NCBI GenBank assembly: GCA_040754455.1
Contig: JBFMCP010000020.1
Coordinates: 1 to 60,125, forward strand
DNA: 60,125 nt
Direction: 5' to 3'
Source: Nitrospirota bacterium
Lineage (GTDB): Bacteria > Nitrospirota > Thermodesulfovibrionia > Thermodesulfovibrionales > Dissulfurispiraceae
Made by a program: the position numbers
Shown here: positions 1 through 12,000 of the stretch, piece by piece
Numbering within the stretch: the stretch's first letter is position 1
Layout: each line of letters begins with the position of its first letter

Positions 1-3000
1 GCTATCACCAAAATTATTATGACCTTTTTCCATCGAAGCATCGTGCCGGTCCTCCTTATATAGTTATCATTTCTTGCTTTCTATATTGCATATGACATGC
101 CTAAGGTAAAAGCTCAATAAATCAAAGTAGAAGCTACAGCAAAAAGGTTTTGAGACTTCCTTTTTTCAGTAAAGAATTCCCTTTTAGGAATAACTGATAA
201 ACATGGGTAATTTTCACCATGCCGATTGTATGTAACTATATGGGAGTTGAAGAGCAAAGTCTACACTATGGACAGCGCGACAAATGATCCACCTTGTGTA
301 ATGTGTAGACCCGACCCTCTCATTCGCTCTTTCACAATTCCCTTAAACAACCATTTACTTTTGCCTTGCAACCGTGTATATTCATTCAGCGCATTAAGGG
401 AGACAAAATGCTTAGATCAGATTCTCGGATTTGCGATATCTGCGGTTCTGAAATACCAAAAGGCGAAACCTACCGAAAAGCTGCTATTTCGCCGGAAGCG
501 GCAAGAGTATTGCTTGATACGGCAGATATAGACATGGTGCCGACCCTGACACAGGAAATGAATGGCATGGTCAATCTTGATATATGCCTCGAATGCCATA
601 TGTCAATGGGCACTATACCGAGTACAACAGAAGCACATTAAATCTGTCATCTAACACAACAATAGAAGTTGACGCAAAAGCAAAGTGGGAGGGTATTTCG
701 GTAAAGGATTAGAACGAAATCCTGGATTGTATTTGCGTTACCTGCGATACCCGTGCTCATTCCTCTTTTCGCTCTCTTCTGGCTCCTGTGCGTCAGGAGC
801 CAGGGGAACGCGGGATGGCTTTTGAAATTTTTAATTTCTGGCAGTGTAGCCTTTTTTATCTTTTTAACCGGTCCATGAGCTACTATCTCAGATATATTAC
901 GGTAATCCTCTTTGTACTCGCTGCATTTATTTCTTTTAGGAAATGGAAGCGAATCCCGGCCGGAAGAAATAAAAAAAGCGGCCTTATCCCAAAATACTTT
1001 GCACTGCTTGTTTTACTTATCTTGAATGTATCGGTTGTTACGGGGTTCTTCTATTGATGAAAGGGAGCGTTATGGTGAAAGTCGGGGATTCGATTTCGGA
1101 TGGACAATTAATCGGCAAGGTAGGCAATTCCGGTTAATACCTTCGAACCGCATCTCCATATCCATGTCCTGAGAGATGATAGAAGAGGGAAAAGGACGGT
1201 GCCCATTCTTTTTGGCGGAAGATTTCTTACATTAAACAGCCTCTACGAGTGAGAGAAGGGGCGCTGCCGCCCTCTCTACAATATTACAAACACTTCAAAC
1301 TACCCGATCCTCTGCGGGTGGGTATAGATGTTGAACCGGTCTGCCCTGATGAACCCGACGACCGTGACGCCGCTTCGCTCTGCGATATCCACGGCAAGGC
1401 TGGTGGGAGAGGTCCTGCTCGCTACCATTGGAATTCCCCATTTCGCGCACTTTGAGACGATTTCCGATGACAGTCTTCCGCTGGCGAGCATGATCTTCCC
1501 TTCAAAGGGAATGGTTTCGAGAATGGCGTAGCCGATAATTTTATCGACGGCATTATGCCGCCCGATATCCTCGGCAAGGCAATAGATCTCGTTGCCGTCG
1601 CTGAGGGCCGCACTATGGACGCAGCCGGTCATTTTATAGAGCTCCGACGCGTTCTGGAATTTCCTGAACACCTCTTTCAACGCCGCGGGCGTAATGCGAA
1701 AAGGGTCATCTATCTTTTGAAGGGCGAGCCGCTTGGGGAAGGTGATGCCGCCGATGCAGCCCGAGGTGATGACCGCACCATCCGTCGTCACCTCGCCTTC
1801 TGCAGGAATATCGACCATAACGTCTTCTCCATACTCGATCGTCATCCGCTCGGCGCACCAGCCGCCCTTGATGATGTCTTCGGTCATGAACATCCCCACA
1901 ACAAGCTCTCTGACCATGAGCGGCGTGCAGTAGAGGCTCAATACCTCTTTGCCGTTCACCGATACCTTCAACCGCCGCTCTATCGCGATAGAGTCTTCTT
2001 TTTCTTCACAGGAGGTTCCGTTGTTCTTGTAAATTTTTCTTTTTAAGTATCCTTCCATATTTTCACTCTCTTGTTTACCACTTCCTACTTCCCACTTGTT
2101 TTTAATTGTTCATACATTTTTGCATTCTCGATCGCAGTCCCGCATACTTCCGCAAGTGAAGCAGAGAACGCGATATCCTCTTCCGAAAACTGGCGCGGCA
2201 TGTCGGTAAGCAACCGGAGCACGCCGATGACCCTGCCCCGTGCAATAATAGGAAGCGTCAGCATGCTTTTGATCCCCTCCTGCAAGGCCTCTTTCTGGTA
2301 GTGAATACGAGAGTCTGTCGCCACATCGTGAATGGCAACAGGCCTCGTCTGCAGCGCCTCCCGTACGTTCTCTTCCCTGTCCACCGGCCCCCGTGCAAGA
2401 TATTTCTCGCTCAATCCGTAAGCAGCGGCCAGTTCCAGTTTCTGCCCCGAGGCGTCGAGCAGCCTGATGGTAGCTGCCTTGAGGTGCATGGCCTCGGGCA
2501 GCTTTCTGACGATGAGATTGAGGACCTCATCCAGACGCAGGGTGGAACTGACTACCTTCGTTACCTCCTCGAATACGCGCAGGTATTCCCTTGCGCGAGT
2601 AACGGTGCTCTCAAAGGTCCGTGCATTGACAATAGCAATGGCAGCCTGTTCGGCAATGGCGGTCATAAACTTCAGATCCTCACTGCTGTATTTGACCGGC
2701 TCGGCGGTATACATCCTCAACACGCCGATCACCTCTTTCTTGAATCGTACCGGAATGGATAATATGCTCCGGATTCCCTCTGCTTCCGCTTCCTGCCGAT
2801 AACGGGCATTGGTATCCGAAACAATATCATAGATAGAGACCGCCTTGCCGTCGAGGGCATCGAAAATGCTTGGATCGTACGCAACAGGGCCTTTGTTGAC
2901 GTAGCGCTCGCTCAATCCATGGTGTGCCGCCACTTCGAGCTTCTGCGTCTCCTTGTTCATAAGCCGCAGCATGCTCGCTTTGACATTCATGACCTTCACG

Positions 3001-9000: not shown

Positions 9001-12000
9001 ACACCGTGGACCTCGCTTACCGGCACCTTCAGGCCCTTCGCAATGTGACGCTGTACGACGGGGGGGAGATAACCGATCAGCTCCTGCGCCTCCTGGAGCA
9101 CGGGAATCAGCGCGCCCGGCTTTCCCCTGTAGCGCTTTATGATCTCATCCAGCTTTGCCGCCGCCTCTTTCGTGTAGTCCTCATCCTGGGGCTCAGTCGT
9201 GACACCCTTTTTCTTAAACTCCACGGCTTTGGTCGTCACCTCGACGAGCAGCGCGGGGGAAAACGGCTTCGGCAGGTAATCGACAATTCTCATGCTCAAT
9301 GACTCTTTTATGCTTTCCTGAGAGGGATATCCGGTGATGACCACGATATTGACCTCGGGGTCCTTCGTCCGCACCTGTTTCATAAATTCGAGGCCGTCCA
9401 TCTCAGGCATCTTGAGATCGGTAATAATAAGGTCGTAATTGTTCTTATCAAGGAGGCTCAAGGCCTCTTTTGCAGATGATGCGGTGTTGACCCCGTATCC
9501 CTCAGGACCGAGGATCCTTTCACAGCTGGTTCGCACAATCTGTTCATCATCGACTACAAGGACATTGCCCTTCATTCCTTATCCTCCTTATCCCTTTATT
9601 GGATTCACTCGTGCAAGCCACAGGTACCATCCATCGCAGAGATGGTCTTTCATGAGTGAGCATATGGCGTCATTGGCGTGCCCGTTCACTTCCTTGATCA
9701 CCCCGGTCATCGGCGCCTTGATCTCGTAGATCTTGCCGTCGCCCGAGAGCAGTTTTGCAAAGGTCTCGCCGTTGGCAATCGCCTTAACGTTCCTCATCAT
9801 ATCGACATACAGCATCTGACCGCTGACGAGGAAATGCCGCACATCAACGCCTATCTCCCATGAGCCGTCTTTTGCCGGACGCGCCCAGGTGCCGTCCTTG
9901 TAGAACATCGTCTGGCTGTCCATATCGGATGCCGGGACAATGTACTCCTTGAACTGGTCGATATACGCCTTTTTAAGGATCCACCCCCTCTTGTCAAAGA
10001 CCCGCTTTGCCACATTCATCATGAAGTCGGGCGTAAAGGGTTTCTCGAGGTACTCGAAGGCGCCGAGCCGGATGGATTCCTTTGCATCCTCCAGCGTCGG
10101 ATACCCGGTTATGACGACGACATCCGCCTTGGGCTGTATGGTCTTTGCCTCCTGGATCACGGTAAGACCGTACACATCAGGGAGTCTGATGTCGGTGATA
10201 ACCAGGTCGAACTCGTCTTTAGAAAGCCTCTCGACAGCACTATGGCCGTCTTCCACGGTGAATACGGTATACCCTTCGCCGCCCAGTATGCGCTTGCAAC
10301 TGAGGCCGACAACGGGATCGTCATCCACCACCAATATTCGCTGCTTATCCATGGTTCCCCCTTTCAATAGGTGTTAACTGCATCAATACCCATTAAAAAG
10401 CAATATCGATGCCAGGGTAGAAAAACATGAAATTTTAACAGCTTACACCTTCTGAGCGGTTGAAGTGTATAACTTTTTTATACGGTAGCTCGTCCCTGTT
10501 GCTGCAGACCTCAAGCTGAAACTCCTTGAAAAACTGCTCTTGTCGCACGCTGCAGAACTGTATATTTTTTCCAGACACCAGCATATGCATCGATGACGGC
10601 AGATTTCAGATTTAAAATCTTAATGCCGATCATAAAATCTGCAGCCATAAATGGTAGAAGCAGGGCAAGCGCATGGAAACAGGGGGGTACGCGCAGGTGG
10701 TTAAGGGAGGGGTGCTCTGGGGAGCCTTCTCAATGTGCGCACTCTTTCGTTTGTCTATCGTTGGTCGAACTACGTAACCCTATATATATTCGGACAATCT
10801 CTCACTACGCCGACTTTTGAGCACGATCAGTGTGATGGTGCCTGCCATAAAGATAATTCCTCCTGCCAAGGCCCAGAGCGCACCGGGCTCGCGGCTGACT
10901 TCGAGGAGGATCGCTTTGAAAGGATACGCCTGCAGGTCTTTTACATGGATATTAAAGCCTTTGTAGAGAGATGGCTTGTTCGGAAGCAGCCGGTCCTGCT
11001 GCATTACCGCACCATCGGCGAGATATTCTACATCAACGGACCAGCCGGTAAGATAGCCGCGGGGGTCGATCTGCAGGTCGATGCTCTTTATCCTCATCAC
11101 CGTGCTCCCGGCAATCTCGAGGGCGGTCCCTTCCTGCGCAACGGCGTTGCCTTTAAACCCCTCGAGCGAGCTGAGCAGGTGGGCGAGGAGAATGAAGATG
11201 AATCCGATATGAACGATCTGCGGGGATATCAACAGGAGCCATTGCGTGGCCTTTCGTTTTTTTATGATCGACTCGATGCTGCAAAAGAGCGTATTGGCGG
11301 AAAGCAGAACAAGGATGATGACGGATGCCCACAGCCACCACGTGATCCCCGATGCTTGTACGTTCATCCATTCAAAGAGCGGCATGGCATGGATGGACTG
11401 AAACTCCTGATGTGAGGGCATGATCACGGCTCCCGCAAAGAGCATGATGATGAGCAAACAGAGGAGCCAGATGGCTGTCCGCAGAGAGAGAAGAAAGCTC
11501 AGCAGCTGTTTCCCGATCATCATTCAGTCTCCTTGTTTCCGACTCCCTACCTTTATTCTGACTCCTGAATACCGCTTTTAAAAACTATGCGAACTCTTCA
11601 TTAAGAGACTCACGCCGAGATACGTAAACAACACGACGGCGAATCCTGCAATGCCGATGATTGCCGAAGGCCTTCCCATCCACTCCTGCCGCAATCGCGC
11701 ATGGAGATAAAGACTGTAAAAAAGCCACAGAATACTGGTCCAGAGCTCCTTGGGCGTCCATAACCAGTACGTGCCCCATGCAAGATACGCCCAAATACCT
11801 CCGAAGATCATCGAGAGAGAGAAGAAGCAGTATCCGATGAGTATCGAGCGGTACTGCATGCTCTCAAGTAAGCTGTCATGTCTTTTCAGATAGAGTGCGC
11901 CGAGGACTGCTGCGATGCCGAAGAGGGCATAGGACAGAAAGGCAAGCACCACATGCAGCTCGAACCACAACGTCTTCAATACCGGCGGCAGCGGAGTATT

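Follow-up and report, generated by a model that had tools for sequence, protein, structure and literature searches.

Two receiver domains in a putative Bfu-type flavin/iron-sulfur operon of a Nitrospirota bacterium, with a NuoG-type rather than formate dehydrogenase-type large subunit

The operon described here most resembles the Bfu family (HydABC, HndABCD, NiFe-HydABCSL, and NfnABC; solved structures 7t2r, 7q4v, 8a6t, 7p5h, 9n5u, and 8oh5), with which it shares a BfuB-type flavoprotein with a thioredoxin-like domain at its N-terminus and two [4Fe-4S] clusters at its C-terminus, a BfuC-type [2Fe-2S] subunit accompanied by a small HndB/HydD-like protein, and an A subunit that opens with NuoG-type iron-sulfur domains. 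Its gene order, E-HndB-F-A, is that of hndABCD. According to the description of the solved Bfu enzymes in PMC11829005, BfuC is anchored by its N-terminal domain, its [2Fe-2S] C-terminal domain alternates in position between flavin and ferredoxin-reducing clusters, and the B3 and B4 clusters are required; a degenerate formate dehydrogenase (FDH)-like domain in the A subunit is described there for NfnA as well. Unlike those of the Bfu family, the operon has no gene for a catalytic head, whether hydrogenase, FDH, GltD-like, or another; its BfuC carries an N-terminal receiver, and it includes a gene for another receiver protein, which has a GcvH-like domain. Our literature search found no paper on the fusion of a receiver to a NuoE-type subunit, and the words "receiver", "response regulator", and "kinase" are absent from the main text of Schut et al. 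2022 (PMC9304861). A receiver has been described in mycobacterial complex I, where MSMEG_2064/Rv3143 is a separate single-domain protein located on NuoB/A/C/I at the membrane interface (PMC10068793). As described there, a receiver is likewise a physical part of a respiratory enzyme that oxidises NADH, and its cognate kinase lies elsewhere. In contrast, the receiver here is covalently joined within a Bfu-type module, to its NuoE-type subunit, and the two cases are unrelated in position and lineage.

The initial annotation placed seven minus-strand genes at 1300-10352 in a single operon. In the window, the whole 60,125-nt stretch analysed, all seven ORFs were found at these coordinates in the order REC::GcvH-like, REC::NuoE, HndB-like, NuoF-like, NuoG/FdhA-like, PAS-GAF-GAF, and FdhD, but the last two lie behind a strong terminator. 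This intrinsic terminator-like hairpin (3780..3816, minus strand), with a 15-bp stem and a T-run, lies 17 nt past the stop codon of the large-subunit gene; its folding energy is -27.9 kcal/mol (z -4.78), and none of 200 shuffled sequences folded as well. A terminator also separates the large-subunit gene from fdhD in locus L113. The 521-aa protein encoded at 2085..3650 (minus strand) contains a PAS domain, a Cys-rich CxxC...HGxCxxC stretch, and two GAF domains (PAS-GAF-GAF in Pfam), has no output domain, and is confined to close relatives. The genome has a single FdhD sulfurtransferase gene (1300..2058, minus strand); in four of the five other genomes tested, fdhD is far from the operon. The PAS-GAF-GAF gene and fdhD are probably a separate transcription unit, which most likely serves the true selenocysteine (Sec)-containing FDHs of the genome.

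At the other end, a candidate sigma-54-type promoter (TGGCAT-N5-TTGC; 10400..10414, minus strand) lies about 48 nt upstream of the first ATG at 10352. It is the sole match with one mismatch to TGGCAC-N5-TTGC in the 60-kb window. Of 22 related loci, 6 have such a motif by this pattern 40-86 nt before their first gene, where the background is 0.011 per 400 nt. Four TCTGC(A/C)G-like repeats further upstream (10501..10653) are possible activator sites, a weak assignment since the related loci do not conserve them.

The second gene (8718..9575, minus strand) encodes a 285-aa fusion of a receiver with a NuoE/HydC/BfuC-type [2Fe-2S] subunit (REC::NuoE). The annotated fusion was borne out by Pfam (Response_reg, 1.5e-30, residues 5-113; 2Fe-2S_thioredx, 1.9e-50, residues 143-285), by orthologues, and by direct reading of the residues, in which the reported acceptor set (Asp9, Asp10, Asp53, Thr81, and Lys103) is complete. 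All four Cys residues of the cluster are invariant; among solved structures, the NuoE part is best matched to 7t2r_C and 8a6t_C. The fusion, counted as a match to P0001 at E<=1e-40, was found in 199 of 317 genomes of the order, 138 of its 219 high-quality genomes, and 90 of 122 genera; among the 150 matches listed, all but one, which is cut by a contig end, spanned both domains. The acceptor residues and the switch Thr/Tyr are kept in 21 of 22 orthologues. The exception is L023, where the fusion is kept though the receiver lacks the acceptor Asp and Lys; therefore, a structural role of the receiver that does not need phosphorylation may exist.

The first gene (9588..10352, minus strand; alternative TTG start at 10367) encodes a 254-aa response regulator in which a long conserved linker helix joins a receiver to a GcvH-like barrel. 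Pfam assigned Response_reg (5.3e-26) and GCV_H (2.4e-5; 24.6 bits, cut-off 22.2) to the ORF 9588-10367. An acceptor set equivalent to that of REC::NuoE and the switch Thr/Tyr are invariant in all 13 orthologues. Profile comparison with the true GcvH of the genome gave a probability of 91% (E 1e-6) and aligned the lysine of the ESTKA motif to an invariant Gly; the annotation of a barrel that lacks the lipoyl-lysine was therefore correct. When a model of the barrel only (pLDDT 65) was searched with Foldseek, H-proteins were the 19 best listed matches (ranks 1-20; E 5e-4 to 2e-2), after which E jumped to 0.25. The protein shares with GcvH (PF01597) the barrel-sandwich fold, the motifs surrounding the hairpin, and the C-terminal GW motif. 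It differs in the Gly, in the helix-linked receiver, and in being always co-encoded with the redox module in the loci having it.

The initial annotation had noted as a caveat that the operon contains no histidine kinase. This is answered in part by a candidate cassette located in trans on contig C3, which encodes a HAMP histidine kinase, HATPase_c_2, DRTGG, PHP, a small HATPase_c, a receiver, and a receiver-sigma-54 activator (receiver-Sigma54_activat-HTH_8); its single-domain receivers are several in number. In three related loci (L004, L006, and L007), REC::NuoE is immediately preceded by this cassette, with a 66-67% identical kinase, and in four others (L011, L012, L017, and L022) the small HATPase_c gene lies upstream. 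The alpha-1 helix of a receiver can set its kinase specificity. The motif DDE.IVR.SC.R.L.PEGY in this helix is common to both fused receivers and the cassette receivers, and is absent from a receiver paired with another kinase. From the gene neighbourhood in relatives and this helix motif, the C3 cassette is a candidate source of the kinase for the fused receivers.

The third gene (8207..8659, minus strand) encodes a 150-aa HndB/HydD-like, thioredoxin-like protein, which has a weak Pfam match to 2Fe-2S_thioredx; in BfuB, its homologue is the N-terminal thioredoxin-like domain (8oh5_B residues 2-89, E 2.5e-15). The fourth product is a HydB/BfuB-type, NuoF-like flavoprotein of 627 aa (6311..8194, minus strand); it starts with a thioredoxin-like domain and, in Pfam, carries two Fer4 domains with [4Fe-4S] motifs at its C-terminus. 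Its bit scores were 829 to NiFe-HydB (7t2r_B), 818 to HydB (7q4v_B), and 726 to NfnB, about two-fold above those to canonical NuoF (about 385) and FdsB (353-394). By sequence comparison, the NuoF and NuoE parts are far nearer to bifurcating HydB/HydC than to their counterparts in complex I or FdsB/FdsG.

The large subunit (823 aa; 3833..6304, minus strand) contains NuoG-type iron-sulfur domains, Molybdop_Fe4S4, Molybdopterin, and Molydop_binding in Pfam, and has a degenerate FDH-like molybdopterin fold. FdsGBA(CD) of Rhodobacter capsulatus and Cupriavidus (6tg9 and 6vw7) and bifurcating FDHs of the HylABC-FdhF2 type have the same subunit types, FdsA-type FDHs are the best-scoring PDB matches of the large subunit, and an fdhD (fdsC-like) gene is near the operon. 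However, FdsB and FdsG match much more poorly than HydB and HydC, and alignment to R. capsulatus FdsA placed ARFGYA against ARVCHS, with the Arg-bearing stretch unaligned. Gly-Tyr replaces the Cys/Sec-His pair, and the catalytic Arg is missing, in 17 of 17 orthologues, including L023. At this site, the Sec-FDH of the same genome reads HCARLUHA/NPLRGQNNVQG, the large subunit SAARFGYA/IPAEFSNTLG, and the complex I NuoG of this genome, with the same kind of degeneration, SVAGFAFA/LSSELPNEQG. The large subunit failed the NCBIfam Fdh-alpha model (TIGR01591; 441 bits, cut-off 666) and just passed the NuoG model (TIGR01973; 470.4, cut-off 470.05). Among its 143 full-length relatives, 12 are FDH-type. 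In the tree, the large-subunit clade (support 1.0) falls within a 12-tip clade (support 0.987) consisting entirely of degenerate, NuoG-like proteins. Unlike complex I NuoG, it lies outside any nuo operon here; it is also 50 aa shorter than the genome's own NuoG, with a deletion after the former Arg site, and distant from it in the tree (2.49, compared with 1.8 to the nearest outgroup).

The NuoG likeness raises the alternative that the products form a signal-controlled NADH/ferredoxin N-module that docks through the NuoG-type subunit on the Q-module of complex I. Such a Nuo-Bfu arrangement was predicted by Schut et al. 2022 (PMC9304861). Besides passing the NuoG model, the large subunit gave a full-length match to M. 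smegmatis NuoG (8e9g_G). As in Nuo-Bfu, related NuoG-like proteins sit with a Bfu-type EF pair in nuo operons, of the form nuoABCD-E-(HndB)-BfuB-G-HI in L126, L129, L161, and L172 and in part in L130, L131, and L148; in L100, L103, and L104 the operon and nuoA/nuoB are divergently arranged, and in Desulfoferrobacter suflitae two-component genes directly precede Bfu-type nuoEF joined to nuoA-L, an arrangement that also speaks for the proposed regulation of the Bfu-type core. However, no nuo genes adjoin the operon here, complex I on contig C27 has canonical NuoE (154 aa), NuoF (417 aa), and NuoG (873 aa), and the only other NuoH-like gene is part of an Ech/Mbh-like cluster, so that there is no headless complex I to serve. 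We regard docking on complex I as doubtful.

Another alternative is that the large subunit binds an FdhD-matured pterin or guanine-nucleotide cofactor, either for another reaction or to sense a ligand, the complex then being a sensor of redox state or metabolites that is coupled to the receivers. fdhD follows the large-subunit gene in nine distinct loci (the window, L002, L003/L099, L016, L097, L113, L117, L154, and L023, the last of a different family), a recurrence not explained by chance alone; therefore, the FDH-like domain may be able to bind a pterin or guanine nucleotide. The PAS-GAF-GAF protein is coupled to fdhD, the former active site has a conserved Gly-Tyr and acidic residue, and the Cys residues of the proximal [4Fe-4S] cluster are retained, as is the lysine of CSKGRF; in M. 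smegmatis NuoG, a GTP-like ligand is described at the former FDH site (PMC10068793). Nevertheless, most orthologous operons have no nearby fdhD, ordinary NuoG shows the same degenerate pattern, the terminator splits these genes here and in L113, and receivers normally take in signals rather than emit them. A cofactor-binding role is accordingly improbable.

It is likewise improbable that the receivers serve assembly or dimerisation, or drain the kinase as phosphate sinks, without switching catalysis. The L023 fusion and the single-domain receivers of the cassette would fit such a role, as would the M. smegmatis orphan receiver, described as a structural complex I subunit with an occluded Asp (PMC10068793), but the conservation of the acceptor and switch residues in both fused receivers argues for selection on phosphorylation chemistry. 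Least probable is the soluble NAD(P)-linked FDH, switched by phosphorylation of its electron-transfer subunit, that the initial annotation proposed from the molybdopterin subunit and FdhD. The full set of Mo/W-bisPGD fold family domains, the FdsA-type PDB matches, and the recurrence of fdhD downstream in the window and eight other loci speak for it. Against it, the large subunit lacks Cys/Sec-His and Arg, fails the Fdh-alpha model, and falls in the degenerate clade, fdhD is single-copy, lies behind the terminator, and is mostly distant in the other genomes tested, and a true Sec-containing FDH with its own NuoE/NuoF is encoded on contig C42. The overall interpretation in that annotation is partly supported.

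We give somewhat better than an even chance to the reading that the five genes from 10352 to 3833 encode a Bfu-type core without a catalytic head, with receivers phosphorylated by the C3 cassette. Receiver-fused BfuC, the HndB-like protein, BfuB, and the NuoG-type A subunit would form a HydABC/Hnd/NfnABC-like flavin/iron-sulfur core handling NADH and ferredoxin, in which BfuB has the additional N- and C-terminal cluster domains found in bifurcating members. A third redox partner, required for bifurcation, is missing from the operon. Since the operon encodes no catalytic head, electrons of the A subunit would have to reach a partner encoded elsewhere. Transcription would run from the sigma-54-type promoter to the terminator after the A subunit. 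The cassette kinase would phosphorylate the paralogous receivers of the activator, BfuC, and the GcvH-like protein; phosphorylation of the activator would control transcription. Because the N-terminal domain of BfuC anchors the subunit while its [2Fe-2S] domain swings, the phosphorylated BfuC receiver could gate this movement or the oligomeric state. The operon, with its NuoE, HndB, NuoF, and large-subunit genes, carries two intact fused receivers, which makes it a fair hypothesis that the enzyme is directly controlled by phosphorylation.

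ORF listing and Pfam searches recovered the entire minus-strand gene row of the initial annotation, including its two receiver fusions. The row starts with a 254-aa protein (10352–9588, counted from ATG; an upstream TTG at 10367 is a possible alternative start) composed of a receiver and a GcvH-like domain (REC::GcvH-like). It continues with a 285-aa protein composed of a receiver and a NuoE-type [2Fe-2S] domain (REC::NuoE; 9575–8718), a 150-aa thioredoxin-like protein (8659–8207), a 627-aa NuoF-like protein with a thioredoxin-like part at its N-terminus and two ferredoxin motifs at its C-terminus (8194–6311), an 823-aa large subunit in which NuoG-type FeS domains precede Molybdop_Fe4S4, Molybdopterin, and Molydop_binding domains (6304–3833), a PAS-GAF-GAF protein (3650–2085), and FdhD (2058–1300). 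Elsewhere in the window, positions 1–1300 are AT-rich (41% GC vs 50–59% in the operon) and contain no ORF matching Pfam, and an Rfam scan of the whole window, this stretch included, gave no match. Two large minus-strand ORFs of 743 and 753 aa (53148–58455), which matched no Pfam family at E ≤ 1e-10, are located directly downstream of the gene for a CbbQ/NirQ/NorQ-type AAA protein.

The NuoF-like protein has the features of BfuB, namely an N-terminal thioredoxin-like domain, C-terminal B3/B4 [4Fe-4S] motifs, and an FMN and NADH site (Pfam and the match to 7t2r_B). It matched 7t2r_B nearly end to end (829 bits; residues 1–594 of 627) and also the bifurcating BfuB proteins 7q4v_B (818 bits), 8a6t_B (756 bits), NfnB (726 bits), and Thermotoga maritima HydB (703 bits), compared with ca. 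385 bits for canonical NuoF and 353–394 bits for FdsB. The NuoE part of REC::NuoE has the C-terminal [2Fe-2S] domain of BfuC with four invariant Cys residues, and its best matches were the HydC-type chains 7t2r_C and 8a6t_C. Like HndB/HydD, the 150-aa protein corresponds to the thioredoxin-like domain at the N-terminus of BfuB, encoded as a free-standing copy. We found no third catalytic site of the kind carried by the Bfu A or attached subunits; the A subunit is NuoG-type with a degenerate site, and the operon has no conserved gene for a head. The related loci share the core [REC::GcvH-like]–REC::NuoE–HndB–BfuB–large subunit, while the genes after the large subunit vary (ThiF, DsrE, sugar enzymes, and chaperonin), and therefore there is no conserved head. 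Judged by the BfuB, BfuC, and HndB matches and by the variable downstream genes, the module is a Bfu-type core that has an A subunit of the NuoG type and lacks a catalytic head. Two more BfuB paralogues of 787 and 792 aa in this genome end in a pair of CBS domains (C2:39555–45088, L084 5555–11088, and C11:60662–63040, L085 6662–9040), the one on contig C2 being part of a CooS–NuoE–BfuB::CBS–FeS–NuoG-like cluster. Thus, regulatory domains on Bfu subunits recur in the genome.

The initial annotation had interpreted the operon as a phosphorylation-switched, soluble NAD(P)-linked formate dehydrogenase (FDH), an identity that the large subunit contradicts in its active-site residues, in family models, and in its phylogenetic position. 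The Cys/Sec-His pair of the Mo/W ligand site is replaced by Gly-Tyr in the window protein and in all 17 orthologues from related loci. When aligned with FdsA of Rhodobacter capsulatus, ARFGYA was opposite the Mo-ligand sequence ARVCHS, and the catalytic-Arg stretch did not align. The catalytic Arg motif PLRGQNN is changed to IPAEFSNT (Ala/Glu, with the acidic residue conserved). In an alignment of the window protein with three paralogues from the same genome, the two sites are HCARLUHA and NPLRGQNNVQG in the Sec-containing FDH of contig C42, SVAGFAFA and LSSELPNEQG in the complex I NuoG of contig C27, and SAARFGYA and IPAEFSNTLG in the window protein; because of this comparison, we regard the site of the large subunit as degenerate in the manner of ordinary NuoG. 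The NCBIfam Fdh-alpha model TIGR01591 scored 441.3 bits and did not reach its cut-off of 666.25, and the NuoG equivalog TIGR01973 passed marginally (470.4 bits vs a cut-off of 470.05). Among 1.84 billion representatives searched, the clade comprised one close cluster (relative P0006, 57% identity) and a tandem protein, after which identity dropped to 43%. FDH-type residues were present in 12 of 143 full-length relatives. In a FastTree phylogeny from which fragments of <700 aa and proteins of >1000 aa were dropped, the large-subunit clade (support 1.0) was placed within a 12-tip clade of degenerate proteins only (support 0.987), and the smallest clade holding all FDH-type sequences excluded it. 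These sequence comparisons indicate that the large subunit is not a formate dehydrogenase.

The 1405-aa relative P0005 was considered as a fusion that might name a partner, and it was rejected since it is a tandem in which a large-subunit homologue is joined to the beginning of another NuoG/FdhA-like protein; it is possibly an artefact of gene calling. The module occurs in two tandem copies in the related loci L112 and L122 (about 1150–11500), where REC::NuoE–HndB–BfuB–large subunit is followed by a second BfuB–large subunit pair. In another locus (L021), a second NuoE–NuoF–FdhA/NuoG-like cluster is located 3 kb downstream.

The presence of fdhD, which had been taken as further evidence for an FDH, does not restore that identity, although it is not fully explained. 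fdhD is the sole copy in the genome, which also encodes two Sec-type molybdoenzymes that need FdhD, on C42 and C17; the C42 enzyme adjoins its own NuoE and HydB-type NuoF. Behind the stop codon of the large subunit gene, at 3780–3816, is a terminator-like hairpin of 15 bp with a T-run (dG −27.9 kcal/mol, z −4.78, 0 of 200 shuffles), and therefore the PAS-GAF gene and fdhD probably form a separate or attenuated transcription unit. A similar hairpin was found in locus L113, and none was found in L002 and L023. In five other operon-carrying genomes, fdhD was always present, adjacent to the operon only in the genome of L023 and ca. 620 kb away from it in one complete chromosome. On the other hand, fdhD lies downstream of the large subunit gene in nine distinct loci, which counts against our conclusion and is not fully explained by the above; eight of them belong to the sub-lineage of the window (large-subunit identity of at least 72%), and the ninth, L023, is from another family. 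According to passages of PMC10068793, NuoG of Mycobacterium smegmatis has a GTP-like ligand bound in the former position of the cofactor, and by this analogy the large subunit may retain a nucleotide or pterin. The PAS-GAF-GAF protein has no output domain. Its residues ca. 140–185, between PAS and the first GAF, form a Cys-rich stretch (CxxC ... HGxCxxC) that matched no Pfam family, and its GAF part weakly resembles the GAF domains of PtsP, NifA, and FhlA. In L002, the PAS-GAF-GAF gene overlaps fdhD.

As for the electron partner of the core, several of the NuoG-like relatives retrieved with the alignment of the nearest tree neighbours of the large subunit are encoded in other phyla within operons of the type nuoABCD-E-(HndB)-BfuB-G-HI (L126, L129, L161, and L172), and the operon and nuoA/B are divergently oriented in L100, L103, and L104. 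In view of these loci, the module may still feed a Q-module of the complex I type. No nuo genes were found in the window. By analogy with NiFe-HydABCSL, orphan NiFe hydrogenase subunits could serve as the head; genes for NiFe hydrogenase large subunits are present on C5 and C40. For this genome, the possibility that the module supplies the head that a complex I without EFG lacks was rejected, since the annotated nuoA–I stretch on C27 includes canonical NuoEFG of its own and the one further NuoH-like gene belongs to an Ech/Mbh-like membrane cluster. This cluster (C23:2701–9396, L087) encodes a fused NuoC-NuoD-like protein (521 aa), the NuoH-like protein, and two antiporter-like subunits, with an HTH-PTS_EIIA_2 regulator in front, and a search for NiFe large subunits gave no match in it.

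Both fused receivers have the acidic pair, the phospho-acceptor Asp, Thr/Ser, and Lys, together with the aromatic switch residue. The residues previously assigned to REC::NuoE (Asp9, Asp10, Asp53, Thr81, and Lys103) are readable in its sequence and are kept in 21 of 22 orthologues, and the equivalent set of REC::GcvH-like is invariant (13 of 13). A search with REC::NuoE (P0001) gave matches at E ≤ 1e-40 in 199 of the 317 genomes of the order; among the 150 matches listed, both domains were covered in all but one, which is clipped by a contig end. The Dissulfurispiraceae orthologue L023:10001–10846 keeps the fusion, but in its receiver both Lys103 and the acceptor Asp53 have been lost and the acidic pair reads Asp-Asn. 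That locus has no REC::GcvH-like gene, and fdhD directly follows its large subunit gene. Given this degenerate receiver, a structural role of the domain is also possible. A receiver-like stretch in one Thermodesulfovibrionia genome is located just upstream of genes for canonical-type NuoE and NuoF and a NuoG-like protein (L142:6716–11661), the NuoE and NuoF being 56–65% identical to the complex I paralogues; this may be a second, independent receiver association.

The C-terminal barrel of REC::GcvH-like has the H-protein fold, with a Pfam score above the cut-off and an hhalign probability of 91% against the true GcvH of this genome. Since structure searches with the full model (Foldseek and VIA-align) returned only receiver domains, the barrel was modeled alone (pLDDT 65, moderate confidence), and its 19 best listed Foldseek matches (ranks 1–20) were all H-proteins. 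Protein Atlas also pointed to GCV_H clusters (score 0.80), which we treat as a lead only. The absence of the lipoyl-lysine was confirmed, as the hairpin-tip lysine aligns with an invariant Gly. A complex prediction covering the NuoF core (residues 95–535), REC::NuoE, and REC::GcvH-like as partner scored 0.00, a value uninformative about binding either way.

Scanning with the sigma-54 consensus gave a single one-mismatch match in the window, at 10400–10414, ca. 48 nt upstream of the first ATG. In 6 of 22 related loci, the motif recurs at a distance of 40–86 nt before the first gene (expectation, 0.011 per 400 nt). Farther upstream of this putative promoter are TCTGCAG-like repeats, which were discarded since they are not conserved in relatives. 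A survey of sequencing runs listed 20 DNA entries and no RNA entry. The statement that the operon lacks a histidine kinase holds for the whole window, in which no kinase or activator was found, but a candidate cassette is present in trans on contig C3. It consists of genes for two HAMP-HisKA-HATPase kinases, followed by HATPase_c_2, DRTGG, PHP, a small HATPase_c, a receiver, and a receiver-Sigma54_activat-HTH_8 protein. The signalling island (C3:15103–25322, L088 104–10323) starts with a PAS-GAF histidine kinase and a receiver, followed by a divergent HAMP kinase and a receiver, and an Rnf operon is ca. 10 kb away on the same contig. In L004, L006, and L007, the cassette is directly upstream of REC::NuoE (kinase 66–67% identical), and in L011, L012, L017, and L022 a small HATPase_c gene precedes the module. 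The alpha-1 helix of a receiver carries kinase specificity. The alpha-1 motif DDE.IVR.SC.R.L.PEGY is shared by both fused receivers, the cassette receivers, and the activator, which is identical to the BfuC receiver at 15 of 19 positions, and the receiver that accompanies the neighbouring PAS-GAF kinase lacks it. This sharing suggests that one kinase serves several receivers. Synteny in relatives and the shared motif make the C3 cassette a candidate source of the cognate kinase.

In solved Bfu enzymes, as described in parts of PMC11829005, the BfuC N-terminal domain forms a wedge that separates the FDH-like domain of A from the Rossmann fold of B, and the C-terminal [2Fe-2S] domain moves between FMN and the ferredoxin-reducing B3/B4 clusters. 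The receiver is attached ca. 25 residues before the BfuC N-terminal domain, where it would be well placed to affect the movement of the [2Fe-2S] domain or the oligomer. In a possible but rather doubtful scheme, one sensor-kinase cassette would exert joint two-level control over a bifurcating NADH/ferredoxin core: its sigma-54 activator would switch on the operon, and the receivers on BfuC and on the H-protein-like adaptor would gate the swinging [2Fe-2S] domain at the protein level. Alternatively, the gated step would be docking of the module to an acceptor such as the complex I Q-module.

The full-text literature searched made no mention of post-translational control of Bfu enzymes, and searches for links between receivers and NuoE, response regulators and HydABC, DRTGG/PHP and hydrogenases, or HATPase and hydrogenases returned nothing relevant. 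The main texts of Schut 2022 (PMC9304861) and a 2018 review of multimeric hydrogenases mention no receiver, response regulator, or signalling kinase. The parts are of known kinds (Bfu core, NuoG-type A subunit, receivers, and H-protein fold), and their combination is undescribed in the literature searched. The closest precedent is mycobacterial complex I, in which a separate orphan regulator occurs in an NADH-oxidising complex, whereas the receiver is fused here. The new results for this window are that the FDH label is refuted, that a terminator follows the large subunit gene, that a cassette with its activator lies in trans, that the alpha-1 motif is shared, and that the genome keeps a complete canonical complex I head.

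In metabolic reconstructions of Thermodesulfovibrionales, neither this module nor its relatives should be entered as formate dehydrogenases, and Gly-Tyr instead of Cys/Sec-His is the diagnostic against that label. Bfu bifurcating enzymes set the NADH/ferredoxin balance of anaerobes, and a receiver on the subunit whose cluster domain must swing allows a direct test of how they are gated; about 200 species-level genomes conserve this fusion. If true, the two-level control would provide the first example in which two-component phosphorylation acts directly on a bifurcating enzyme of the flavin-based type.
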